Below, in pieces: positions 333-64,000 of a stretch of 64,000 nt of DNA. The DNA comes from Paraspadella gotoi (Eukaryota > Animalia > Chaetognatha), in contig CM119263.1 in the NCBI GenBank assembly GCA_051294375.1, positions 31,174,335-31,238,334 of the forward strand, given 5' to 3'. Both the position numbers and the translations under genes were made by a program. Each line of letters begins with the position of its first letter. The first letter of the stretch is position 1. The notes beneath the pieces were generated by a model. It was not told the origin of the DNA. It searched no databases and worked only from the letters and a program-made list of their open reading frames with translations.

Positions 333-3300
333 ATGGCGGACGGGGACGTAGATCTTTACGGCGACGATTTGGCCGAAGACGATTATCAAATGAAATCGGA
401 AAGTAAGAAAATTATATTGTATGAAAATTTGCAAAATGCAAATTACTTGTTTCACTATTTTCTATTTTTATATTTTATGAAGGATTGAGTATATAATCTA
501 TATTATTTAAACAAATATATATTGCTTTTTTTCTTAATTTTTTTTTTATCATTATATCTAATAACTCAATTTGGGAAGGGGAAGTCGGTGTTGTCTTCTG
601 GAAATAGAAGGAGTATGGCAACGGGAGGATAGCCTGTGATACCCGGGGCGCGGGGTATCTCACCAACTGGCGTAGGGGCTGCGGACCCTCAGTGACCGCC
701 TCCTGTCACTGGCATGTTTATACCGGCACCGTCACATTTAAGCCAGAACCGGGATACCCAGGGATTGAACCCGGGACGCACGGATGGAATGAGATGATTT
801 AGCCTGCTCAGCCATTGAGACGAGGCTGAGGACGGACAGCAGTGAGGCAGCTTTTTAAGTCTTGCTGCCACAGGATCCCCCACCAGACTTCTCCACAGGG
901 GCCTCAATCCTGAGGAGATGTCTGAGAGAAGGTTTTGATCTCATTGCCATAGTGAGAGCGAGCGGGCGAGCGAGCGAGCGAGTCTGGAGCGTTACCAGAG
1001 AAGTAGGGCATAGGCGTGATATGCATACCCTAAGCGATGTAAGCGTGGGCGCACGGTGCGCAGCGGTTGCGTGTTCGAGAGTCGGGCTCACCACTTATGG
1101 CAACGGGAGGATAGCCTGTGATACCCGGGGCGCGGGGTATCTCACCAACTGGCGTAGGGCTGCGGACCCTCAGTGACCGCCTCCTGTCACTGGCATGTTT
1201 ATACCGGCACCGTCACATTTAAGCCAGAACCGGGATACCCAGGGATTGAACCCGGGACGCACGGATGGAATGAGATGATTTAGCCTGCTCAGCCATTGAG
1301 ACGAGGCTGAGGACGGACAGCAGTGAGGCAGCTTTTTAAGTCTTGGCTGCCACAGGAGCCTCTATAATTGTGACAACCTTTATGAAATACATTTTCGCCC
1401 TTGAGGAAACGAAGGGGATCAAAATGGCGGCGAAGATTTGTACGACGACGTCTTGACGACGCCGGCTTCGCAGCCGCCGCCCGCCGAAGAGCCCAAGCCT
1501 GCGCCGGCGCCCTCCGTCCCGCCGCTGCTCATGGCCACGCCCATCAATCCGCCCACGGTGTCGTCGTCGCCGAGCGGACATCAGAACTCGCCGAGTGTCC
1601 AATCCGGACAAACGCAGGGAAAACGATTCTCGCTTTATATCGGTATGTCGAGGATACGGGATTTCATCTTTGACCTGGATATAATACTCTCTCTCTCTCT
1701 CTCTCAGGCAACCTGACCTGGTGGACGACTGACCAAGACTTAATCGACGCCATCAACTCTTTGCGCGTCAACGATTTGTTGGAGATCAAGTTTCACGAGA
1801 ATCGAGTCAACGGACAATCAAAAGGCTTCGCTATGGTCGCTTTCAGGTTTTGATTAAATTTCAAGACTTTATTATTAACAATATAAATCATATTAATAAG
1901 TATTTGCTAACTATTACCAGCACGGACGCGAGCGCCAAGAAGGTGATGGAACAACTGCCCAAGATGGAATTACACAACCAGAATCCCGTTGTCACGTGAG
2001 TAGATTTGACGAAGTGAACGACCAAAACGATGACGAAAACGACGACGACGAAGTGAACGACCAAAACGATGAAATGGACGACGTCTGCAACTTTTCTCTT
2101 CTTTAATCAGATTCGTGAATCGATCTGCGCTGAAGCAGTTTGAAGACGCAGCACCGAGTCGTCCCGATCCTCCGCCGCAGCATTACGACAACCGCGGCCG
2201 CAGCAGCGATAGGTAAGTGCATTTTATTCTTCCTCTCTCTCTCTCTCTCATTCTTCGCGTTTCATCTTTCAGGAACGAAAACGGAAGCGGCGCCTCCAAC
2301 TCTGGCTACCGCAGCTCGAGTCAGCAGCCACCGCCGCCGCTGTCCTCAGTGGCGCCTCCATTGTCGGGTCCTCCGCCTTTGGTGAGGCCTCCGTTGCAGG
2401 TAAGTCGCATCGACATTAATCCTTACCTTTTCTTCGCAGTCGATAAGTTCCTTCCATTCCTCCTCAAGCCGGGTTTTCATCCTTCCTCCGGGATGCCACC
2501 CGGTCTTCGCCCCGGTCTTCCTCCTCCGGGCGCACTCCCTCCGGGGATGAGGCCACACGTTCCTCCACCGGGAATGCCCGGCGCTCCGCCCGGTCTCCCT
2601 CCATCTCGAGGTCCGCCTCCGGCCGGCGCCCTTCCGCCGGGCTTCGTCCCGCGCCCCGGGATCGGCATGCCCGGCCTTCCGCCCGTCTCCGGCGCGCCGC
2701 CGCAGTTTCTACGCGGTCCGCCTCCCGGCGCTCATCTGCAGCCGACACAGCTGCAGCATCGACCGCACGGACTCCCGCCGCCGGGAATGCCGCACCCGCA
2801 GCCGCCGCCGGGCGGATTTCCTCACGGATCCATCGCTCCGGGTTAGTCGAGTCGATGGGGCGATTTTTTTTGTGCGTCGGTGATTTCACGTTGTTATCCG
2901 ATTCTTTCCTTTCAGGCGGACACTCTCAGCCACCAGGCCTCCGTCCTCCAGGACCAGGGGCTCCTCCCATGACGTTGCCGCAAGTGGGCGCTCCGCAGCC
3001 TCACATAAACCCCGCGTTCCTGCCCCCGAGGGGACCAGGCGTGCCGCACGGGTCTCTTCCCGGGGCAGGCCCCTCCTCGCATCCGCCGCCGTTCGGCGTC
3101 AGACCTGGAGCCCCGCCTGTCGGCTACCCCGGAGCTCCTGGCCTGGCACCGGCCTTCCAAGGGGATCAGGCGGCCGCCGCGGCGCCGCCGATGTCCGAGT
3201 CGGAGATGGAGGAGCATCTGCAGAGAAACAAGCAGGTGTCGTCCAACGCCATCTCTAGGGCCGTTCAGGTTCGTTTCTTGTTCGAGGGCGACCTTTATTT

Positions 3301-4834: not shown

Positions 4835-7800
4835 ATGCGTCATCAAATCTTCGTCGTCTGCGACGTGACGCGTCCGCCCGTCCGTCTCCTTCCCCGTGAT
4901 TCCTCCTCCTCCGACGACGCCATCTTGTCCGCCGTCGTCTCCGTCGCCGACGTCAACGATGGACAAATCGTCGCCTTCGCGCGTCTAATCGACGACGACG
5001 ACGATCTCGACGTCGCCCTTCGCCTCAAATTCAAACAACGAGATGTCGCTCTGGGTCGACTCTCTCGATGGAGCAGATGCTTGACGTGGGAGGGAGACGC
5101 GTTGAAGGCGTCGAGCGAAGATGAGGAAGAAGATGACGAGGTTACGATTTATTGCGTTTGTCAGGAGGAGGAGGAGGAGGAGGAGGAGAAGCCGAAGGTG
5201 AGGTCAAGGGTAACTTTAGTAGAGGGGAAATTTGACCTTTGGGGTTTTTTGGCTCAAAAATTTCGACGTGGCCTAACTCGCTCTTGTTTCCCTTTCAAAT
5301 TCACAGATGGGCTCATTATGAATCATCAAATTATTAATTTATTATTTGTCCAATCTAAATTTCCAGGAAGTGACTAAAGAAAATTCAACCCCGACGACGA
5401 CGACAATGACGACCACGAAGTCTTCCTTCAAGAGAAAACGCTCCGTCCTCTCCACCGTCAACGATAAAGAGGATGAGACGGAGTCCCAGTCAGATCCCTC
5501 CACCACTCCGCCCGCCTCCGCTCCAAAGAAAGCCAAAGCCGCTCAAACTCCTCGTGGCAGAAAGCCCAAAGTCAACGGCGGAACACCCAAGACGCCAAAG
5601 ACGCCCAAGACTCTTAAAACGCCCAAGACTCCGAAGACTCCCAAGACTCCTTCTCAGTTGAAAACATCGGGAAAGGTCTACAACCCCAACACCGTCTCGG
5701 GATGCTTCCTCAACATGCTCCTGGCCAAGTCGTCCGCGGCCGACGACTCTGAAGATGCGATGGATGAGAAGAATCTTCATCCGACGGCGACGTCGCCCGC
5801 GCACGCTGAGGCGCCATCCGAAGGCAAAGACGGTGCCAAGGAAGCAAAGAGCGAAAAGGCGCCGCCGACGCCGCGAATGGACAAAGACAAACAAAAAACC
5901 GATATCGTCAAAACAGAATCCGCCGTGCCGAGTGATTGCGGCGCCAAAATAGAGAAGGCGTCGGGGAAAGAAAAAGACGCCCCGATGGTGGAGAAGGCGC
6001 CGTCGAGAAACAAAGAGGGCGTTAAGGAGACGAAGGTGGAAAAGGCGCCGGGGACCAAGTTTTTGGTTCAAGCTTTGTTGGGCGACGATTCCGACGGTGA
6101 AGAGAAAAAGGAGGGGGAGAAGGCGGAAGAAGATTCGTGTGAGGTCAGTTGACAAAGAATGATTAACCCAGTTTTCCCATTTATTTCATTGATTTCATTT
6201 CTTTTCCCTTTTTTTTCGCCCACAGTTCCGCATCCTCTCCTCCACAGTCCTCACTCCATCGCCCACAGTCCGTTGGGGCCACAGTCAGTGCTTCGTCTCT
6301 TCCCCCTCTGGTAGTCACGTGGTCGTCGTCGGTGGACAGACGATCAAGAGCGCCTTCTGCCGCGACGCCGCTTGGCTCTTCGATCCCGGATTCGGAGAGT
6401 GGGAGGCGTTGGAGACCGGCGCCGCCGGATCCCAGGTATCTTGAGTGGGAGTGGGGTTGGTTTGTTATTTGCTTTGAAGGGGAAAAGGGGAAAAAAGAAT
6501 CATTTTTAGTGAAGAAATGGAAAAGTTAGGTATTTATTATCCTCCCTCGCTGACAAAGTATTAATCTACTATCTAGGAAAAAAGTATATCACACTTGAGG
6601 GGTATTGAAGGCGTGAGGAAATAGAAAAAAAAATAATAGTATATTTCGCGAAGAGTAAAAATTAAAGAATATATTGTGGCAGCAAGACTTAAAGCTGCCT
6701 CACTGAAACTGTCCGTCCTCAGCCTCGTCTCAATGGCTGAGCAGGCTAAATCTTCTCATTCCATCCGTGCGTCCCGGGTTCAATCCCTGGTATCCCGGTT
6801 CTGGCTTAAATGTGACGGTGCCGGTATAAACATGCCAGTGACAGGAGGCGGTCACTGAAGGTCCGCAGCCCCTACGCCAGTTAGTGAGATACCCCGCGCC
6901 CCGGGTATCACAGGCTATCCTCCCGTTGCCATAAGTGGTGAGCCCTACTCTCGAACACGCAACCACTGCGCACCGTGCGCCCACGCTTACGTCGCTTAGG
7001 GTATGCATATCACGCCTATGCCCTACTTCTCTGGTAACGCTCCAGACTCGCTCGCTCGCTCGCCCGCTCGCTCTCACTATGGCAATGAGATCAAAACCTT
7101 CTCTCAGACATCTCCTCAGGATTGAGGCCCCTGTGGAGAAGTCTGGTGGGGGATCCTGTGGCAGCAAGACTTAAAGCTGCCTCACTGCTGTCCGTCCTCA
7201 GCCTCGTCTCAATGGCTGAGCAGGCTAAATCTTTTCATTCCATCCGTGCGTCCCGGGTTCAATCCTTGGGTATCCCGGTTCTGGCTTAAATGTGACGTGC
7301 CGGTATAAACATGCCATGACAGGAGGCGGTCACTGAGGGTCCCAGCCCCTACGCCAGTTGGTGATATACCCCGCGCCCCGGGTATCACAGGCTATCCTCC
7401 CGTTGCCATAATATCGTTAAACAAAATATACCGAGGGAGGAGGAGGAAGAAAAAAGAGGAAGAAGAAGAGGAGAATGGGACAGCAAGCTAAATCTTCCTC
7501 TGTCATATAATTGTTAATAAAAAATATATAAAACATTGATAAAATATTTTTAATATTTGGTATGCCTTTCCTCGGCATTAATTACTGCTTGCATTTATCT
7601 GGGCATGCTTTCATACAGCAAATTGAGGTATGATAGTAAAATATTTTTTTATATCTTAAACGTAATTATTTTCAGCTCTGTTGTGCGTTTTATGTAGATT
7701 TGGAAACAATCTGATTTTTTTTAAAATCAAACAAGTTTTTGAGTAGATATCCTTTATTAAAAATGTGGTATACTTTTTTCCTAGATAGTAATTCTTATCT

Positions 7801-15808: not shown

Positions 15809-18441
15809 ATGGGGCGAACTGGAGACGAGAAGTTTCAGTGGAAGACGAACTACTTCATGAAGTTGATTCGACTTTTTGACGAATACGAAAAGTTTTTTAT
15901 CGTCGGCGTCGACAATGTGGGGTAATTTGATGCATAAAAATTGAAAAAGATTGTCCTCGAATGCCCTGAATGCCGTAAATCTTTGTCTAGGTCCAACCAG
16001 ATGCAGCAGATCCGCATCTCCCTTCGCGGTTCCGCCGATGTCCTCATGGGAAAAAACACGATGATGCGAAAAGTCATTCGCGGTCGTTTGGAGACGAACC
16101 CCACTTTGGAAAAGGTCTCCCTTAAATCTTGGGATACGTATTTCGTGTCTTTTACCAAATTATTTCTATACTAAATGATGACAAAAATTTATTCATTGAT
16201 TGAATCTGTGATTCATGATCTTTTCAGTACCTTTACCGACTGAAGACAAAGAACTTTGACGACTCTGCCGACTTTTTCAAATCCTTTCTTTCAACATTCT
16301 CTCGTTTCTTTTCCCGCCCTCCCTTTCTCTCAACCCTGTTCCAATTCCTCCGTCCACACCGAAGATCCTCCCCCACATCGTCCGCAACGTCGGCTTCGTC
16401 TTCACGAAGGAAGACTTGACCGAAATCCGCGACCGCCTCGTCTCTAACCGGAAGCCGGCGGCGGCCAAAGCCGGCGCCTTGGCTCCGGTCGACGTCTACG
16501 TTCCTTCGCTCAACACGGGCCTCGGCCCAGAAAAGACTTCCTTCTTTCAGGTTTTCCTTTTTTCCTTCTTTGAAATTAAGGAACCATGGCTCGTCTCTGT
16601 TTGACGTTTTTTTTTTCATTTAGATTTGCCGTTTATTTTTATTTTTTATACTCCGCTTTTGCATACAAACGCTTTTCTCCCTGTGAACTAAACCTCCTCG
16701 TTTTTGCAGTTTTTCTCTCCGTTCCCCAAAATCGGTCCAAGCGTATTTCCCCCTCTTCGCTCGGGACACTGAAACTGGAGGGAATGACCCGTGAAAACAA
16801 ATCTGCGGTAAATTTCGTTGACGTGTTTCCGTCTATCCGTTTGGTGTTAATGAATTCCCGTTTGGTTACCAATTCATCATTCGTCCGTCGGCGACATTCA
16901 ACTCTTTCTTAAATGTCCAGGCTCTCAACATCCCCACTAAGATCACGAGAGGCTGCATCGAAATCCTCTCCGCGACGAAGATGTGCACCGAAGGTGAGAG
17001 GGTCGGCGCCTCCGAGGCCACCTTGCTCGCCATGCTCGGTATTCAGCCTTTTTCCTACGGCTTAGAAGTCAAGGTTCGTAGCTCATGTCCATTTTTGTGA
17101 CGCGAGCTGTCTATGCCACGCCCCACCTGTCTCATCCCCAGATGGTCTACGACAACGGGTCCCTTTACCACCCGTCGATCCTGGACATCACCGACGACGA
17201 CGTTCGCGCTCGATTCCTTCAAGGCGCCGCCACCGTCACTATGGTCTCCCTTGCCATTGGGTACCCGACCAAGCTCTCCGTTCCTCATATGATCGCTAAT
17301 GGATTCAGGTGACACGAATTTGACGACGTATGGATGAACCTCATTACTCATTAGTGCGTAACAGATGTGCTTTTAGTATAGCTTGGGTAAACCAGTGTGT
17401 AGATCTTGGAGAAACGGTCAAATATTCTTATCAAAACTTGACTCGGTTTTTAAAATTAATGGTTAATTTTGAAGGAGCCGAGGAAGGATCATTGCGAAGC
17501 CGGGGGTTTTTCAATTACGGCTTGATTTCTTTTCGATTGTTAACATTTTTTCTTGCACCAGACGGCTTATAAAATAATAGAAATTATGACAAGGCAATGC
17601 CAATACGACAATATGCAAATGAGGTTGATGAACTCAATCTCATTCTTGGTTGCATCAAAAGTTCCTTCCTTAGAATAACGCTCACTCGGCTGGAATGAAG
17701 AACATGTTATTAAATACGAATCAAAGAACATTAATATGAAACGAGAGAATAAAGAAATAAAGATTAAGTCTTTAAATAATCATATAGTATGGCAACGGAG
17801 GGACATGTGTGATGCCTGGGGTGTGAGGCATCTCCCGACAGCTGGCGCTCAGGGCTTTGGACCCTCAGTGACCACCCCATGTCACTGGCGCGTTTATGCC
17901 GACACCATCACACTTTAACCAGCCTGACCGTGAGGGGATTGAACCCGGAACTCACGGTTGGTGAATGAGTTCTTGGCTGTCCAAGCCAATGGGACGAGCT
18001 GAGTTTCACCAAGCTATACGGGAGGCGAATTTAGGATTCGCCACAATAGTCTATTATTGAAGATCAATATCGAGAATCCGATTTCAATCCACGAGAAACC
18101 CGATTTCCATTCGTGAGACTCTGCTTCCAACATTTTCACGTCGTCGTCCCAGGAATTTATTGGCCGTCGCCGTGGAGACCGACTACACTTTTAAAGAGGC
18201 GGCGGGAATTAAGGAGTTTCTATCTGATCCTTCGAAGATGGAGGCTTTGGTCGCCGCCGCCTCCGCCGCCGCCGCAGCCGAGGCTCCTGCCGAAAAGGAG
18301 GAAGAGGTACCTCGATATCAAAAAATTAAATTCGTTAAAAATTAATTTAATTAATTAATTGGTTCATAGGCCCCACCGGCCAAGGAGGAGGAGGAAGAGG
18401 ATTCCTCGGAGGAGGACATGGGATTCGGACTTTTTGACTGA
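15809..18441 (+). CDS. RPLP0: 60S acidic ribosomal protein P0 (uL10)
   Basis: [87 protein letters not shown]; C-terminal [18 protein letters not shown]-stop. Confidence 0.97.
16175..16243 (+). ncRNA. Candidate intronic C/D box snoRNA in RPLP0 intron
   Basis: Perfect C box ATGATGA (16175-16181) and D box CTGA (16240-16243) spanning 69 nt in an enlarged ribosomal-protein intron; no clear terminal stem and no verified target. Confidence 0.35.
17788..18045 (-). mobile_element. Solo LTR of a diverged subfamily of the tRNA-LTR TRIM, in an RPLP0 intron
   Basis: 258 bp; minus-strand termini TGTGGCG...GTTGCCATA; B box GGGTTCAATCCCC; colinear with the 259-bp LTRs; 4-bp TSD ATAG (17784-17787 / 18046-18049). 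Confidence 0.88.
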
Positions 18442-32300: not shown

Positions 32301-33958
32301 ATTACTCGTGATTGAATGGATGGATTGGAATGAAATTTTGTGTGTGGGTAGGGAAATGTTTGAATGAGTTAGATATGAAGTTTCGATGGAATCGTGCGAG
32401 TGGAAAAGTGTAAATAGAAAAAACAAAAAAATATATTTCACTATTTGAACGCCAATTACTCATTATGACAATTGACCAAATTATGACAATTGACCAAATT
32501 ATGACAATTGACCAAATTATGACAATTGACCAAATTATGACAATTGACCAAATTATGCAAGTTGACCAAATTATGCAAGTTGACCAATTATGCAAGTTGA
32601 CAATTGACAAGTTGACCAAATTATGCAGTTGACCAATAGTTGAATGCAATTGACCAAATTATGCAGTTGACCAAATTATGCAAGTTGACCAAATTATGCA
32701 AGTTGACCAAATTATGCAAGTTGACCAATATCATGACAAATTATGCAAGTTGACAATTGCATTGACAATTATGCAAGTTGCCAAATTATGCAAGTTGACC
32801 AAATTATGCAAGTTGACCAAATTATGCAAGTTGACCAAATTATGCAAGTTGACCAAATTATGCAAGTTGACCAAATTATGCAAGTTGACCAAATTATGCA
32901 AGTTGACCAAAATTATGCAAGTTGACCAAATTATGCAAGTTGACCAAATTATGCAAGTTGACCAAATTATGCAAGTTGACCAAATTATGCAAGTTGACCA
33001 AATTATGCAAGTTGACCAAATTATGCAAGTTGAAACAAATTATGCAAGTTGACCAAATATGCAAGTTGACCAAATTATGCAATGTTGACCAAATTATGCA
33101 AGTTGACCAATATAGTTGCAATGTTGACCAAATATGCAAGTTGACCAAATTATGCAAGTTGACCAAATTATGCAAGTTGACCAATTATGCAAGTTGACCA
33201 AATTATGCAAGTTGACAATTATGCAAGTTTGACCAATTATGCAAGTTGACCAAATTATGCAAGTTGATTCAATTATGGAAATGTTGATTCAATTATGAAA
33301 GTTGATTCAATTATGAAAGTTGATTCAATTATGAAAGTTGATTCAATTATGAAAGTTATTCAATTATGAAAGTTGATTCAATTATGAAAGTTGATTCAAT
33401 TATGAAAGTTGATTCAATTATGAAAGTTTGATTCAATTATGAAGTTGACTCATTGATGAAAGTTGACTCAATTATGAAAGTAAGTATTGGCACAGCTACT
33501 GGTAATGAATAATAGATAAATTGATTTATAGATTTTTTCATAGATTTATTAAGAAGTCTGTTATGATTTGTTATAATCACAAATTGAGAGTCAGAAAAAT
33601 TACCATGATTTATCATCGGATTAGCTTAGATCCGACATTGTTTGCTCAAACTTGTTAATTGACAAATGACATATAACGATTCGATTCTCACAAAGGTGAC
33701 CTTCCCCGCCACATGAAGGAAGTTCATCAAGGGAGACGCTATCAATGTCAGTTTTGTGATAAAAATTTTTCTCAAGAATATAAGCTCAAGCTTCACATCA
33801 AATCGTGTCACTACGGGCGATTTCCTCACAACTGCTCTTCCTGTTCTAAGGGCTTTCTTCGTCCGGGTGCCTTGAAAGATCACATGATTAAGAAGCATCA
33901 AATGGTCGTCGAAACTAAAAAGAGAGAGAATCTCATTATATTAAAAAAAGCAGGGTAA
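29303..33958 (+). CDS. BTB/POZ + C2H2 zinc-finger protein (ZBTB-like)
   Basis: BTB motif LCDVTIV..ILAHKVVLAAASTFMRKIF..LRQLVAFAYTAKL; about 11 C2H2 fingers in exons 31204-32069 and 33696-33958; one finger (CKLCDKLFKRL|GDLPRHMKEVH) is split by the satellite-bearing intron. Confidence 0.85.
30034..30570. repeat. ~85-bp direct repeat in two consecutive introns (30034-30120 and 30485-30570)
   Basis: CTGTAGACCTGTGTTGGAGAA(A/T)CGGTGCCAACATAGGGGGATATCTTGTGCGAGAC occurs twice; it contains a TGTTGG/CCAACA hairpin. Confidence 0.85.
32134..33480. mobile_element. DINE-1/Helentron-like non-autonomous element carrying an internal tandem array
   Basis: GTCY microsatellite (GTCCGTCTGTCTGTCTGTCCGTCCGTCC, ~32252-32280), then a GGAATGAAATTTTG core-like block and a tandem array; this layout is typical of DINE-1/HINE/pearl elements. 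Termini are not resolved. Confidence 0.5.
32463..33480. repeat. 18-bp tandem satellite (~1 kb) with three ordered unit variants
   Basis: Units TTATGACAATTGACCAAA, then TTATGCAAGTTGACCAAA (majority), then TTATGAAAGTTGATTCAA; no unique spacers. Confidence 0.97.
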
Positions 33959-34395: not shown

Positions 34396-37300
34396 ATGGC
34401 GTCGCGAGGAGCGAACGCCTTCCTCGGGGCGCTTCCATCCGCGGGACTGCGTGCGGCGCGACAGCGCAGTGCCGCCTCTGCCATTCTCGAGAATAATAGA
34501 TCTTTTGTTTACAATTATATTAGGTATGTGGGGAGAATTTTTAAGTATCCCGTCCTCGGCGTTATCTGCTACCGAAAGGGGAAAACCGTAAGATTTATTA
34601 AGAAATCATTTTTGCGTCGACTTTCGTCAGGCGCGCATCGACTAGTCACGTTTTATTTCGGCGAGACGTTTTTCCGACTGAGTTGGCGGCGGCCGGCCAA
34701 AGATTAATCGACCTTCGATTCGCTCGTTGCTTCCACACGAGCCGGCCGAATTTCCTGCCTCATCACTTTAAGATCGCCCTTCCCGCGCTGAGGTGGGTCG
34801 CGTTATTCTCTTATCTAGACGTCCACTTCCGCTTAACTATCCCTTAACCTACTTTTTTAGTCCTACCATGGAGATGGGGACCCTGGTCAGTTGGGCTAAA
34901 GCGGAAGGGGATGAGCTGGCCGAGGGTGACTTGCTCGCGGAAATCGAGACCGACAAGGCGACCATGGGATTCGAAACCCCCGAAGAGGGATATTTGGCAA
35001 AGATTTTGATCCCGGCGGGAACCAAGGACATCCCGTTAGGCAAAGTAGGCGCCATTTTATTATTTCTTGCTTTTTTAAACTATTAATTATCTCTTATTTT
35101 TCTCAGTTACTATGCATAATAGTTGAGAACGAGTCGGACATAGCGGCTTTTAAAGATTACACTGGAGACGATGCAGCTTCGGCGCCTGCTGCGGCTCCTG
35201 CCCCTGCCAAAGCACCTGCGGCAGCGCCGGCAGCTCCTGCTCCAGCGGCCCCTAAAGTGAGTCTTGCCCCTAAGGCTGGTGGAGCACCCACGCCATCTGC
35301 CGGCGGTCGCGTGTTTGCAACTCCATTCGCAAAAGCGTTGGCAGCGGAAAAAGGAATTGACATTTCTGTAAGTTGACCATTGACCAAGCCATTAGTGTAT
35401 ATTTATAATGTAAATTATAATTACATATAAATATATAATTATTATTTAAATTGCAATTGAGTTTTATTTTTTAACAGACACTTTCGGGTTCGGGACCCGA
35501 TGGTCAAATTCGCGCTGCTGATATTCAGCAGGCCCCAGCTGCAGCGCCAGGCGCCATTGCTCCAGTTGGTGCTCCAGCGGCCGTTCCAGCCCCAGGACCT
35601 GGTGCACAATATATTGATATTCCTTTGAGTAATATTAGACAAGTAAGCTTTTACTTATTCTCCTTATCTTGGAGAATACTCGCTTAAATAATTCTATCTA
35701 TTTACAAGGTCATTGCAAAGCGACTTTTGCAGTCAAAAACCACAATACCACACTATTACTTGTCGGTAGAAGTAGAAATGGATGACGTGTTAGCAATTCG
35801 AAAAGAGTTAAACTCCTCACTCGGAGAAGGTACGAAATTTGGGTAACTATCAATTTTCTGCTTTAACTCATTGCTTTTAATATTTCTACGTATGTTTTTA
35901 TCGTCGCAGTCGCTTTGCGTTTGCGACGATATTGCTGTGGTTTTGCACATAAGTGGCGTCGTCGTTGTCGTCGTCGGCTTCTTTATGAATAAATTTGGGT
36001 GTATGAAGCTGAAAATTTATATACAGCTTCTCATCATCGATGTGCTTAAAATTGAGTGAGGACAGTTATTAAATATGTTTTGTTTATGTTTTATCAAGAT
36101 CTGATTTGATTTGATTTTTCTTTTAATTATATGTTTCTCTCCCTCTCTCTTTTCCCTAGTCACTGATTCATAGGGAAAAAACGAGTCTGCAGCTGGCTCT
36201 GCAGGGGCTTATTCTTTTTCTCTCCTTTCTCCTGCTGCTTCTGCTGCTGCCTTTTGATTTCTTTCTTTTTATCGTCGCAATCCTAAGCGTTTGCGATGAT
36301 ATTGTAACACTTTTGCGCATAAGTGGCGTAGTCGTCGTCGGCGTTCCAAATTATAGATCGCCTTTTTTATGATTAAATATAGGTTTATGAAGCTGAAAAT
36401 TTATATACAGCTTTTCATAATCCATGTGCTTAAAATTAAGTCTGGACAGTTATTAAATATGTTTTGTTTACGTTTTATCAAAACAAATAAATTTTCTCTC
36501 TTTTATTTTCATATTTCTCTCTCTCTTTTCTTTTAATTACATTTCTCTCCCTCTCTTTTCCCTATTCACTGATTCATAATCATAAGGAAAAAAAACGAGT
36601 CTGCAGCTGGCTCTGCAGGGGCTTATTCTTTTTCTCTATTTTCTCCTGCTGCTTTTGCTGCTGCCTTTTGAGTCTGCAGCTGGCTCTGCAGGGGCTCTCT
36701 CTTTTTCTCTCTTTTCTCCTGCTGCTTCTGCTGCTGCCATTTGATTTCTTTCTTTTCTCTTTCTCTCTCTCTCTCTCGATATCTCTCTGTGTTTTTATTA
36801 AAAAAAAATTTTGAATTGGGATTGAACTCGTAAAATTAGGCATCGCATTCGTGCATGTTATCATTTTGCTATAGTAACATCGGGTTTTTATTTCACTTTA
36901 GTCTTTACTTCACTTTGTCAGTCTGATTCAAGTTTCACTTTGTCTTTTGTTTGGGAATGCTGACAGTGTTTAGAGAGGTTGCATTCGATCAAACTGCTCT
37001 CTTATGCGTGCTTAAAGTAAAACAAAAGTACCTTCAATAATGTTACTCCAGTCTTAGCACTTGCTAAAAATTAAACTCGAAAATAAGTTATTTTATTGTT
37101 TTATATTTATTCTTTTGACAATGAAGAATTTTTTTTTTTTTCAGAAACTGTAACTGTAAATTGACAATCGCAAAATAGAATTTTTCTTAGTATCAAAATT
37201 TGTTGTTAATCCAGATTTTTCTTATGCGATTGCGACGATCCTTATACTTTAAAAATTGTTTAAAATAGGAGGACCAAAGTTGTCTGTCAACGATTTTATT

Positions 37301-49586: not shown

Positions 49587-52500
49587 ATGGTCACTGGTAA
49601 GAATTGTTTTTTAATACTTCAAAAAGGTAGATAATTCATAATGATATTAAGAATATTTATCTTAAAGAATCTCGGGGCTTTTCCAAAATGGGTCCCGCCG
49701 ACGCGAGTCCGTCCGAATCTGTCGGCGCCAAATCTTCCAAGCTTCAGTTTCCCAGTCAAATCATCACCGTCTCCAATTTTCAAGATTTGTTGCAAGGCAA
49801 GCAATGGGGAAAAGCAAGCTCAGAGAGTTCCCCTGCAGCCCTCCGAGCATTCCAAGATCCTAAATCGTTTATTCAAATGATTAAATCAGTTTTAATCTTT
49901 TTTTAGGCAAAGTCACCGCCGCTTCTTCCAAACAAAGTATTCCGCTTACGGTGATAAATCGACAAAATAAACATGTCGAGACTGGAGGAACTTACGCGAA
50001 ACGTCAACAGGTTTTCTATTCGACTTTAACTAGAAATATGTACGTACGTATCTTTGTTTTGATTTTTTAAAAATTCCCCTCCCTCAAATGCTGCAGATGA
50101 AGCAGAAGCAATACCAGCTGCTACAGCAGCAGCAACTTTCACAGCAACACCAGCTGTTAACGTTGCAAGGTCCTTCTTCGAGTCTCATCCTCGGTTCTCG
50201 ATCGAGTCTTCAACGACTCGAGGACGAGACTTTCGAGGAGGAAAGAGACTTGAAGCCTTTCGCTCTTCAACTCGACCACGAGGAAATTGGAGGAGGAGAA
50301 GGAGGAACTTTCAACGGGTTAGCCTCTCCAAAAAGACTCATGTCTAATGTCTATACAATATACATTTTTGATTGTTGGCCGCTACAATGTTAGTACTCGG
50401 GGATCAACTATATGAGACACTTGGGGGTCGGTCGGTCGGTTGTTATGTAGGAGTGGGACTCGGGTTATGTTTGTCCGTCGTTAAAAATAACTCGGTTAAT
50501 ACTTCAATATTATCATATTTAATACGATAGTGAGTTACCATAACACCTTTAATGTGCATATGTATCATACTTGTGAAGATACGTGATGGCCTGAAAAAGG
50601 GATCACATGTCCAAAAATTTAATGCCACTGAAATTCGGCTGCTATTTTGTTGAGTTTGCTGAACTTCGAATCTGAGAAGAAATATAAAAAATAAAAGATC
50701 GTATTCCGATGCAGAGCGTATCAGGTATTATCACCCAGATATACACGTCAAAAACAGTAACTGCGGCGCAATACATTAGAATTGCCGTTGTCTTCTTTAT
50801 TATTAGGAATCTTCAGTACGTCACGGTTATGGAGGCGAGCAGGAACGCGGGTGAGTGGTGTGTTATTTTGAATTAAAATAAACATATTTTTAAATCTTGA
50901 TATAATTTAATTTCCCCACAGAAAAAGATTTGAAACCCATCAAAATGAAAGAGGCGACGGTTGACGCGTCATCCTCTTTTCTCGCTCAGTCCAGCGCCAA
51001 TTCTCTTTTCTTTCAAGACTCGTTGCCTGGCAACGATAAGGTGTGGTTTCAGTGGTACGGTTCTGATTAATCAATAATCATTGATCATGTTAACAATAAA
51101 TTGATTATTATTTTCAGTCCAACGCTGAAACTGTTTTTCTCGAGGACGTCGGCGACGATTCTCAACTCGCCCAGATCGTCTATCAAGACAATTTGGAAAA
51201 CGCCCAACTCCAACCGACTGTCGCCGGTAAATTAATAATTTAATAATCATGTTAGCTCATTTTTTAAATGAATGGATAATTATCGTCGCAATCGCTTAGC
51301 GTTTGCGGCGATATTGTGACGCTTTTGCGCATAAGTGGCGTCGTCGTCGTTGTCGGCGTTCCAAATTATAGATCGCCTTTTTTATGATTAAATTTGGGTG
51401 TACGAAGCTGAAAATTTATATACAGTTTCTCATCATCGATGTGCTTAAAATTGAGTCAGGACAGTTATTAAATATGTTTTGTTTACATTTTATCAAAACA
51501 AACAAATTTTCTCTTTTTTATTTTTATATTTCTTTCTCTCTCTCTTTTCTCTTTTAATTATATGTCTCTCTCCCTCTCTCTTTTCCCTAGTCACTGATTC
51601 ATAGGGAAAAAAACGAGTCTGCAGCTGGCTCTGCAGGGGCTTATTTTTTTCCTCTCTTTTCTCCTGCTGCTTCTGCTGCTGCCTTTTAATTTTTTTTTCT
51701 TTTTTTTCTTTTTCTCTCTGCGTTTTTATTTAAAAAAAAAAGAATTAGGATTGAACTCGTAAAATTAGGCATCGCTTTCGTGCATGTTATTTTTTTTATC
51801 TTTCTCTCTCTCTGCGTTTTTATTTTTTTAAAAATGAATTAGGATTGAACTCGTAAAATTAAGCATCGCATTCGTGCATGTTATTTTTTTTTTTTTTTCA
51901 GAAACTGTAACTTTAATTTTTCTCGGTACTTTATTATTTTTTTTAATTGACAATCGTAAAATAACATTTTTCTTTGTTTATAAATTAATTTCTTTTCTCA
52001 AATTTTTTTTCTCAGGGGCTGCGTCTGTTGATCAGTTTATTTGACAATGACAATTGACAATGACAAAAAGAAACATTTTTTTTTTCAGAAACTAACATTA
52101 ATTTTCCTTGGTACTTTTTTTTAACTGACAATCGCAAAATATAGTTTTTCTTTCTGTTTATAATTTTTTTTTTCTCAAATTTTTTTTTTGTATCAAAATT
52201 TGTCGTCAATCCAGATTTTTCTTATGCGATTGCGACGATCCTTATGCTTTTAAGATATTTTATATTTTAGCCACGTCTCTTACGAACGACGGCGGCGCCC
52301 TTTTCGCCTCCGACGGGCGACTGGAGGTGGCGTCGATAAATTTCGACGCCGCCGTCGATTCCACGATCGAGATGGAGGAAGCGTCGCCGCTCGACGTCAA
52401 AGTCGCCACGGCGCCGGAACTTCGATTCCAGTCGCCGCCTGGCGAAAGTGCGGACGAACAGATCAAAGGTAAAGAGGATTGAAAAAGGTTAATATAGGCC

Positions 52501-60999: not shown

Positions 61000-61530
61000 T
61001 ATCGTCGCAATCGTCTTCTTCTCTCTCTCTCTTTTCTTTTTTAATTATATGTAGCTATCCCTCTCTCTTTTTGGAAAATACAATTGCGACGATCCTTATG
61101 CTTTTAAGATTTTTGATGATTAAATTTGGGTGTATGAAGCTGAAAATTTATATACAGCTTCTCTTCATCGAGGTCCTTTAAATTGGATGAAGACGTTTAT
61201 TAAATATGTTTTGTTTGTTTTATCAAAACAAACAAATTTGCTCTACTTTTATTTTTATGTCTCTTTCTCTCTCTCTTTTCTCTTTTAATTATATGTAGCT
61301 CTCTCTCTCTCTCTTTTCCCCAGTCGCTGATTCCTTGGGTTCTGCAGGGGCTTTCTTTCATTTTAGCTCTTTTCTCCTGCTGCTTCTGCTGATTCGTCCG
61401 AAAACGATTTGGCTTCTCTCTCTCTGCGTTTTTATTAAAAAAAAATTGAATTAGGATTGAACTCGTAAAATTAGGCATCGCATTTGTGCATGTTATCATT
61501 TTGCTATTGCAACATTGGGTTTTTATTTCG
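61000..61530. mobile_element. Rearranged copies of the DINE-1/pearl-like MITE (another fragment at ~63885-64000)
   Basis: ATCGTCGCAATCG at 61001, ATTGCGACGATCCTTATGCTTTTAA at ~61083, the shared core to ~61530; a 3' end GCGATTGCGACGAT plus a new (GTC)n head at the window end. Confidence 0.75.
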
Positions 61531-64000
61531 TTCTTCTCGTCACTCTCTTTTTATTTTTATTATTCTTTCTTTCCTTTCTATTCTTTCTTTCCTTTCTATT
61601 TTTTTTTTATATACGACACAATGAAAAATAACGTGGCGAAATGGTCTCGTGCTGATTTTGTCCCTTTAAATTGTTCTGAGCAAATTAATTGATCATTACT
61701 TTTGGTAATATGTGCGATATATACTACTGGACATTACTGTATCTGACATAACCCTTGACCATCAACAAAAAACGCTAACGAGATCAAAAATAGTAAAAGA
61801 TAAAGCAATATAGCTCGAAACGCTTACAAAATTTTAGACCATTGCTTTTATAAATGCAAAAAAAATATTAATATTATTAAAACAAACTTTAATGATAACC
61901 TATAGTTAACCGAGACCAAGAAGAATATTTTACCCATCATTTCCTCAATTTATATGAATCATTTGTTTATAATTAGTCAATTAATCTAAAATAACAGTAT
62001 GACAAATTCATTTCAATTTTCTTTATGAATGGGAAGTTTTCTCTGCTTACTCCCCTTGTGTCTAATTATTTAATATTTTAAAGGTATTTTCAAAAACTTT
62101 ATATAATTACTATATTTTTCACTTTTTTCAATTCTTTCAAACAAAAACAACATTATAAAAACATTTTAAATTAATAAAAAAAAATTGATTGAATGATTTT
62201 GGAAAAAAATATTTTGAAACTGAGAATAATGGATTATGAGTCAGAAAAAAATTTTGCAATTCTAAAAAATCAGCCTCTAGCCTTTTTGATTTTTCTAGAG
62301 GCTGATTTTTTTATTTTTTTGATATTTTGATTTTCTATGCAAAACCATTATTCTCAATGAGCATAGGTCAGATGAAATTTTTTCCCAACAATTTGAAGAA
62401 ATTTTAACTTTTTTAATTAGGCTTTTTTGGGGAAATAAAATAAATAAATATTTATACGATGGTACATCTGAAGAGATATGTCTCTAAATGACAAAAAATT
62501 TTCTTCAAGTTTTATTTTAAAATTTAAATATTGTACCAATAGAAATAAGTGAGATACTCCCGCTTTGTCGAAATTTTTATTTACAAAGATTGTACTGCGT
62601 AATCTAAAAAAAATATTTTTTTTAAAATAACTTTTGAAGAAAAGAGGTAGCAAGGTGGATGTGGTATCAAATTAAAGCCCATCATGGACACCTATTCTAA
62701 AAGCAGTTTTATTAAATTTAAATCTATAAATCTTACACTGCTTTTGTTTAAATCAGAGTTAAAGTATAACAGTTTTTGCTTAAAATTGCAATGAAGGCAG
62801 AAATTTTTTCTTTTTCTTTTGTAATTTGAAAAAGGAAAGACTGAATTTACATTTGTTTATTATTAAATTTTTTTTATTCATAAAATTGCTTATATTTTTC
62901 AGTTAAAGTAAAAAACAAGCAAAAATTTATTGTGTAGCTGATAAATGTATTTTTAAATATTAAAAATGATAAGTACAAAAATGTTTTCAGCTTTGATATA
63001 AACAGTCTGACATCTACCTTCTTGTCTGTGAAAAAAAAATCGTCATTTTTCATTATCTTATACTGCAAACTAAAAGCTTGACACACTGTTGTTTATCATA
63101 ATAAAAGTTATAAAAAATTATATAGGCTGGTAACCATATTTGACAAAGCAAAACATCATTGTGTTAAATTGTATTGATAATTTTCTTTTAAATTATAGCA
63201 GAAATTTAATTCTATTATTTATCACCATTTTTAATTAGACCAAAATATTTCTCGTTAATTAGCCCATTGGAAGGTTCATTGACTGACTTAATGATGAAAT
63301 TTTTTTTAGATTTCTTTACTGCAAACCCCATTTACAAGAATATAAAAGGTCATGGTTATCATGTCAATAAGTCCAGATTTATCTGTACCCTTTTCTGCAA
63401 CCTGCATTCCAAATTTTCTTTTTTTTCCCTTTCAAATGTATAAATAAAAAAAATTATTTGAGAGAACAAACGGCTGTGGCAGGATGCCATTGGTAAGCCT
63501 TTAGTTTCACCCACTTCCCGATCGAATTTTATAAATGAGGTTTTTTTCCATCTATTTGAGACATAACATTAACTATAGTACTATTATTTTTTTTATTTTT
63601 TTCTATTACAATTCTTTGAATAATATGAATAAGTACTTTTAAAAAATTTATCATCTTTCACCTATATTCAGTCATATCTAAAAAAAAAAAAAAGATTTTG
63701 CATGATATTTTGGAATATCAACATAGAAACTATAACGTTCAAAAAATAAAAAGAAATATAATAATATTGAACAGGTGAATTTTTTTTATGCACGAACAGT
63801 AAACGTTAACGCCATTTGTTCATTGGTGTCATACTTATTCTTTTTTTTTTCTGTTTATAAATTTTTTTTTTCTCAATTTTATTTTTTTTAGTATCAAAAT
63901 TTGTCGTCAATCCAGATTTTTCTTATGCGATTGCGACGATCCTTAGGCTTTTAATATTTTTGTGGTTTTGCACATAAGTGGCGTCGTCGTCGTTGTTGTC

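Follow-up and report, generated by a model that had tools for sequence, protein, structure and literature searches.

Both LTRs of a multi-copy, non-coding retroelement in the chaetognath Paraspadella gotoi carry a motif that, judged by its strand order, invariant letters and compensatory changes, is a real RNA structure under selection and a circularly permuted (type-P5) variant of the twister ribozyme. We are highly confident that the motif belongs to the twister class, and think it probable that it actively cleaves. An earlier, sequence-only reading of this DNA had pointed to selection on an RNA structure downstream of Pol III boxes, which compensatory changes between LTR subfamilies bear out, and had suspected a retrozyme-like self-cleaving motif, for which the type-P5 twister layout now provides a concrete candidate. 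Its statement that the structure fits no ribozyme consensus does not hold, as both a type-P5 descriptor and a model of natural twisters recognize the LTR. We propose, with a modest degree of preference, that each LTR twister, located a short way downstream of the tRNA-like Pol III boxes, would pair with a second copy through stem P1 to form a strand-swapped double twister that cuts both LTRs and releases an RNA of roughly 480 nt.

The host element and its copies

The window, by which we mean the whole 64,000-nucleotide stretch analyzed (contig CM119263.1), contains two full copies of the element and one solo LTR. Element E1 (6675-7410, forward strand), of a roughly 740-bp class, consists of a 5' LTR (6675-6933, with loose ends of contigs marking both 6675 and 6933/6934), a non-coding internal region of 223 bp (6934-7156) with a short purine-rich tract (PPT, 7145-7153), and a 3' LTR (7157-7410) that, as assembled, has three single-base gaps within the ribozyme; a 4-bp target site duplication (TSD) occupies 6671-6674 and is repeated at 7411-7414. 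Element E2 (614-1354, reverse strand; LTRs 1096-1354 and 614-872) lies 5.3 kb away in inverted orientation, is near-identical to E1 (interior 98.7%), and has one twister motif per LTR (1152-1225 and 671-744). The solo LTR (17788-18045, reverse strand) represents a second subfamily, is 72% identical to the TRIM LTR over the aligned part, and carries its own twister motif at 17847-17920, with a predicted cut at 17896/17895. All three insertions are flanked by a 4-bp TSD. Both LTR subfamilies are multi-copy in contigs of public sequencing runs: in one run (X1), 58 contigs exit the TRIM LTR 3' end into unrelated DNA and 86 exit the solo-type LTR 3' end, while the contig depth sums used below are not copy numbers. 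Single-base gaps are scattered in two LTRs and may be assembly errors; none appears among the variants where contigs gave coverage. E1 is surrounded by a 30-bp inverted repeat (6567-6596 and 7761-7790; 93%) and may lie within a small DNA transposon. Elsewhere, the window holds a tandem array of an 18-bp unit with several sequence variants (32406-33505) and copies of another dispersed repeat family, which has a palindromic end (35899-37260, 51281-52260, 61000-61573 and 63833-63961).

On these sequence features the host is a Helenus-type TRIM in an animal. Open reading frames and UNG homologues place the window in an animal, the best named UNG matches being about 59% identical. Like the Helenus/TRIMp3 elements described by Kojima (2024; PMC10886601), it has two LTRs, a short non-coding interior, a primer-binding site (PBS), a PPT, here short, and tRNA-like A and B boxes inside the LTR; its 4-bp TSD is that of the animal families, and its size falls within the published range. 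The LTR opens with a 5' hairpin (6678-6699) upstream of the Pol III boxes, noted in the sequence-only reading and confirmed here, with three double changes relative to the solo LTR. An A-box-like stretch (6725-6736) follows in a tRNA D-arm-like hairpin, with the YGG of the motif given in PMC10886601 intact and the TRGCY imperfect. The B box (6777-6786), with a GGTTC core in a T-arm-like hairpin, is invariant in all five LTR copies; ARAGORN reports no tRNA. The LTR is followed by the PBS (6936-6948), which probably corresponds to tRNA-Trp; its E2 copy agrees with the beginning of Helenus-2_SyJa-I at 12 of 13 letters. In all copies the LTR ends are TG...TA, not TG...CA (6675-6677 and 6931-6933), and two published Helenus LTRs end in ATA as well. 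Part of the interior (7069-7092) can pair with the 3' end of the LTR plus the PBS (6916-6945), forming a duplex of -26.7 kcal/mol that appears in monomer and whole-element folds and could gate primer binding.

The element differs from published Helenus in two respects. PMC10886601, in which Pol III transcription is not validated for Helenus, reports no ribozyme in these elements, the word occurring only once, in a reference title. Furthermore, in the supplement passages covered, the tRNA-like part of the published elements mostly lies close to the 3' end of the LTR and precedes a T run, whereas in the present element another 145 nt, including the ribozyme motif, come after it, and four consecutive T are absent from E2. 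When we searched one file of the Helenus supplement (108,717 characters) with 11 short motifs, none of the canonical P4/L4 12-mer variants that we tried was found, a result from which line breaks or other L4 letters could hide matches; twisters may exist in published Helenus families.

A type-P5 twister motif in each LTR

In the 5' LTR of E1, the motif occupies 6801-6880 of the forward strand and comprises the conserved letters, helices and both pseudoknots of a type-P5 twister (RF02684, clan CL00120; PMC5408937, PMC6154101). The sequence-only reading had placed the start of the conserved unit at 6811, but it begins upstream, at 6801. Within P5 (6801-6805/6876-6880) follow, in the type-P5 strand order, a linker (6806-6809), P2 (6810-6813/6830-6833), the conserved G6814 and A6815, the 3-bp T1 pseudoknot (6816-6818/6863-6865), an 8-nt P1 segment (6819-6826), UAA (6827-6829), the 2-bp T2 pseudoknot (6834-6835/6868-6869), a 7-bp P3 (6836-6857), and P4 with an 8-nt L4 (6858-6873). 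T2 is invariant, as are G6814, A6815 and the UAA in all five LTR copies. By alignment to model R2 (below), G6814 is the equivalent of the general base (G45 in rice, G48 in env22), a role assigned in PMC5408937. The twister consensus predicts cleavage between U6827 and A6828, and, in the 3' LTR of E1, at 7306/7307. The L4 consensus U-N-N-N-A-A-G-C is complete in the solo subfamily; the TRIM subfamily has C for the first A (6866), a position occupied by A in nearly all twisters and equivalent to A34 of env22, which belongs to a base triple (PMC5408937). This C recurs in one of 42 natural loci (L044, which scores 46.9 bits and passes Rfam), in a collection for which most search patterns required A. 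The LTR motif further departs from known type-P5 twisters in that a P3 and a closed P5 are both present, in its short P1, and in an additional hairpin, P6 (6888-6909), on the 3' side of the ribozyme, whose loop is able to base-pair with that of P3 (6845-6850).

Much of what the sequence-only reading described can be placed within this layout, and every sequence letter it quoted is present. Its CAGTGAC/GTCACTG stem is P3, which is indeed invariant in five of five copies apart from one gap, and its GATACCC/GGGTATC stem is P6, with two compensatory pairs relative to the solo LTR. The AGGG/CCCT stem equals P4, although in the solo copy it is one base out of register. The kissing loop fares less clearly. 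In the solo LTR all six pairs can form, one of them compensatory, but TRIM LTRs form five of six (one A.C), and the compensatory pair falls at CpG sites; among 20,000 composition-matched shuffles, 32% (TRIM) and 6% (solo) pair as well. The contact is possible, plausible but weak.

We built a descriptor from two sources, the consensus line of Rfam and PMC8501958 (Table 1), and rearranged it to P5 order. After one letter of L4 and one pair of P4 had been loosened with knowledge of the LTR, it matches four of the five LTR copies and no other site in the window, with no matches in 300 window shuffles (38.4 Mb) or in 50,000 shuffles per LTR; the fifth copy, the gapped 3' LTR of E1, is unmatched. 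As a reference set, we searched public collections with nothing but the conserved letters and recovered 105 loci (L001-L105) from phage and metagenome contigs, of which 68 have no more than a single mismatch across P2, T1 and P4; the 42 unique sequences among these are termed natural P5-order twisters here. The Rfam Twister-P5 gathering score is passed by 13 of 14 reference loci tested, and T1 covaries strongly among 23 of the natural loci. One locus (L035) contains two twister copies, and in another (L028) a type II hammerhead lies close by. Model R2, built from 10 non-LTR microbial and viral loci that were hand-picked with knowledge of the LTR (six with a P3 hairpin, and all 10 passing the Rfam gathering score), scores the four intact LTR copies at 24-29 bits, in register, with rough E-values of 4e-6 to 8e-5; the gapped copy scores 12.2 bits, and the best unrelated site 12.1. 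With model R1, built from 23 viral twisters mostly lacking P3, the LTRs rank high, yet reach 9-11 bits and align out of register. A pattern specific to the LTR has no matches in the metagenome contigs, and in an nhmmer search at E 0.01 none of the 105 reference loci resembles the LTR.

Rfam itself detects the motif poorly. A search with twister-P1, of the kind that the sequence-only reading had called for, gives a weak match on the solo LTR (16.8 bits, E 0.85) that aligns the UAA, P3 and P4 and finds no 3' strand, because that strand (linker, P2', GA and T1') lies upstream, before the cut site; such a strand order defines the type-P5 permutation (PMC5408937, PMC10085705). Rfam Twister-P5 (RF02684) has no match on the LTRs up to E 10, in a search where one query ended short of the ribozyme's 3' side, likely because its consensus expects a long P1 and no P3. 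Since the gathering score of RF02684 is not reached, we class the motif as a twister variant and not as a member of the Rfam family. Searches for hammerhead, HDV, pistol and hatchet ribozymes and for twister-sister found no Rfam match up to E 10.

Covariation provides evidence of a different kind, in a pairing register set by the external twister consensus and not fitted to the LTRs. Between the E2 3' LTR and the solo LTR there are 9 changes over 54 paired positions with one pair broken, for a simulated chance of 0.004 in what is one subfamily contrast, the two subfamilies being compared as full sequences. P2 and T1 each show one double (compensatory) change, and P5, P2 and P1 each show one one-sided change that retains the pair. 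Unphased contig variants add to this contrast. The broken pair in the solo copy is atypical, because about 80% of its subfamily depth has two other letters at 17864/17865 that produce an in-register 4-bp P4 and add two compensatory P4 pairs (phase inferred from equal depths). At these positions, the start of P4, the solo LTR carries TRIM-subfamily letters, unlike most of its own subfamily, possibly as a result of recombination between subfamilies. P2 is perfect in 98% of solo-subfamily depth. In the TRIM subfamily, 6859 is G in 99% of contig depth, so that the P4 mismatch is private to the E1 5' LTR. The fourth T1 pair, which is formed in 23 of the 42 natural P5 twisters, is U.U in both main LTR subfamilies; minor variants with A at 6819 (12% of depth) and C at 6826 (6%), linked on one low-depth contig, would form it. 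In P6, a U-A pair becomes U.G at 17817 in 37% of depth. RNAalifold on the five copies returned a positive (unfavorable) covariation term, with the fold dominated by four near-identical rows.

The P1 palindrome and competing readings

The P1 segment is 8 nt long in the LTR, compared with 14-26 nt in all 42 natural twisters, and in both subfamilies its entire length is self-complementary if G.U pairs are counted; a self-complementary inner tetramer is expected by chance in about 14% of cases, and the two subfamilies are not independent. P1 can form either a 2-bp hairpin within one copy, at +5.0 and +2.9 kcal/mol, or an 8-bp duplex between two copies, at -10.9 and -9.5 kcal/mol, its predicted partner being the same segment of a second copy. 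Unconstrained two-strand folding of the E2 3' LTR core and the solo core yields a strand-swapped pair: P5, P2 and P1 each join the two copies, whereas P3 and P4 form within each copy. The dimer gain for these two cores is -13.3 and -15.3 kcal/mol, against a median of -5.5 and a best of -11.6 among the 42 natural twisters; the third core analyzed, from the E1 5' LTR with its private P4 mismatch, has an ordinary gain of -6.7, and the E2 5' LTR was excluded for a gap. In the whole E2 transcript the swapped helices are nested, and forcing them costs 1.4-2.4 kcal/mol, versus 11.5-12.5 for two monomeric P2 helices. Their probability in the unconstrained whole-element fold is 0.07. All of these folding energies omit pseudoknots and Mg2+.

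These predictions suggest that if the motif cleaves, it would rather do so as a dimer, a mode we favor moderately. The same twister could instead cut in each LTR on its own during transcription, with the 2-bp P1 and its tetraloop sufficing and with P6 and the loop-loop contact stabilizing the monomer. This is the less likely course, but a serious rival: P1 is dispensable in mini-twister constructs (PMC5408937), so that single-copy cleavage may suffice, Schistosoma variants with a poor P1 still cleave (PMC8501958), and the solo core, when trimmed at P5, adopts a twister-like nested monomer fold. The P1-less constructs, however, had free ends and no 8-nt tether, and cleavage without P1 is called inefficient in PMC8501958. 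In TRIM-subfamily monomers, moreover, the probability of P2 is at most 0.01 and an AAAC hairpin dominates the core, whereas the median P2 probability in the natural twisters is 0.88 (n=42).

There are two further explanations. The motif could be a twister-derived relic that no longer cuts, retained as a dimerization or packaging signal in which the palindromic P1 and the kissing loop join two genomic RNAs in an LTR-retrotransposon particle. The C at 6866, the U.U at the fourth T1 pair, the very short P1 and the strong predicted self-dimer would all suit such a relic. LTR reverse transcription requires a terminal repeat, and a linear Pol III transcript would already carry one. We nonetheless regard this explanation as unlikely, given that the catalytic G, the UAA, T2 and T1 pairing (with its compensatory pair) are kept in both subfamilies although the LTRs are only 72% identical, and that a pairing signal would need none of these twister features; L4 is also canonical in the solo subfamily. 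More improbable still is that the non-twister multi-branch fold of the sequence-only reading, with an AAAC hairpin, an enclosing TGTGA/TCACA helix and the kissing loop, is the functional structure. The AAAC hairpin is favored in many TRIM LTR monomer folds (0.03-0.93), the TCACA is invariant in five of five copies for reasons that a twister does not explain, and P6 covaries. While P3 and P4 of that fold are true twister helices, its AAAC hairpin would cover the cut site and its TGTGA/TCACA helix the catalytic G, blocking the active site. Neither of the latter two covaries: the AAAC hairpin, described as conserved, contains a mismatched A.C in the solo LTR, and the A-to-C variant at 6826 disrupts it, and the TGTGA/TCACA helix, though invariant in sequence, has a pair probability of at most 0.1 in every fold that contains it. 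The fold also leaves the compensatory changes in P2, T1 and P4 unexplained. It may represent a state in which the ribozyme is off; when the monomer was folded in circular and linear form, no consistent off state emerged.

For the dimeric twister, we propose the following sequence of events. Pol III would transcribe the element from its LTR boxes, by analogy with plant retrozymes. Folding predictions suggest that a lone TRIM LTR would misfold into the AAAC hairpin, with its cut site hidden, and that the 5' and 3' LTR copies would pair through their 8-base P1 segments to form the swapped dimer. Cuts at both sites would then release an RNA of 479 nt (E1) or 481 nt (E2). By further analogy with plant retrozymes, a host ligase would close this unit-length RNA into a circle, a tRNA would prime at the PBS with reverse transcription proceeding around the circle, and a Gypsy-type helper would integrate the product. 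The released piece would have no terminal repeat, so that standard LTR strand transfer would require a circular form, and a circular template has been proposed for plant retrozymes (PMC4918200, PMC7761336). Given cleavage, a circular intermediate seems to us moderately likely. Tentatively, and with less confidence than in any single step, we suggest that the element is an animal LTR retrozyme with a naturally dimeric, swapped twister, whose LTR copies would complete each other's active sites, so that cutting would occur only after transcription of the full element, at both ends together, to give a unit-length circle.

Relation to known ribozyme-bearing retroelements

A close parallel is with plant LTR retrozymes (PMC4918200, PMC7761336), which are likewise non-coding LTR elements with a 4-bp TSD, PBS, PPT, solo LTRs and one self-cleaving motif per LTR, the last being predicted here. 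By analogy, then, the element would work like a retrozyme. The differences are that plant elements carry a type III hammerhead and have a unit of about 700 nt, compared with a twister and about 480 nt here, and that the present element has an animal host and tRNA-like Pol III boxes, with circles only proposed. The original definition of an LTR retrozyme requires a hammerhead in each LTR, and the element falls outside it, as its motif is a twister and no Rfam hammerhead match was found. Animal retrozymes, as described in PMC7761336, lack LTRs, PBS and PPT.

The predicted dimer has its own counterpart in hammerheads that act as dimers in Penelope-like elements and in metazoan non-LTR retrozymes (PMC6765202, PMC7761336), where a short palindromic helix, unstable in the monomer, is completed by a second tandem copy; Penelope-like hammerheads whose stem III is palindromic and very short probably act as dimers when they cleave (PMC6765202). 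The ribozyme class and the element type differ, and the dimer here is only predicted. Among twisters, those of the Schistosoma RTE element Perere-3 (PMC8501958) also serve a retrotransposon and have a degenerate P1, but they are of type P1 and mark the 5' end of a non-LTR element that is autonomous, in contrast to the type-P5 motifs found in both LTRs of the present non-autonomous LTR element. Truncated twisters in RTE elements are mentioned as unpublished in PMC7761336. In the literature covered, outside subscription journals and bioRxiv supplements, our searches turned up neither a twister within an LTR element nor a naturally dimeric one.

Twisters are widespread, yet few have been assigned jobs; PMC8501958 describes one such job, for an element without LTRs. 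If a high-copy Pol III TRIM has a twister in each of its LTRs, the retrozyme strategy would reach beyond hammerheads to another class of ribozyme, and also to animal LTR elements. If the dimer model is true, the dimeric twister would represent a natural, RNA-only checkpoint acting from end to end of the element, in parallel to the double hammerhead. Finally, because this form of twister is missed by Rfam, others are likely hidden in animal repeats.
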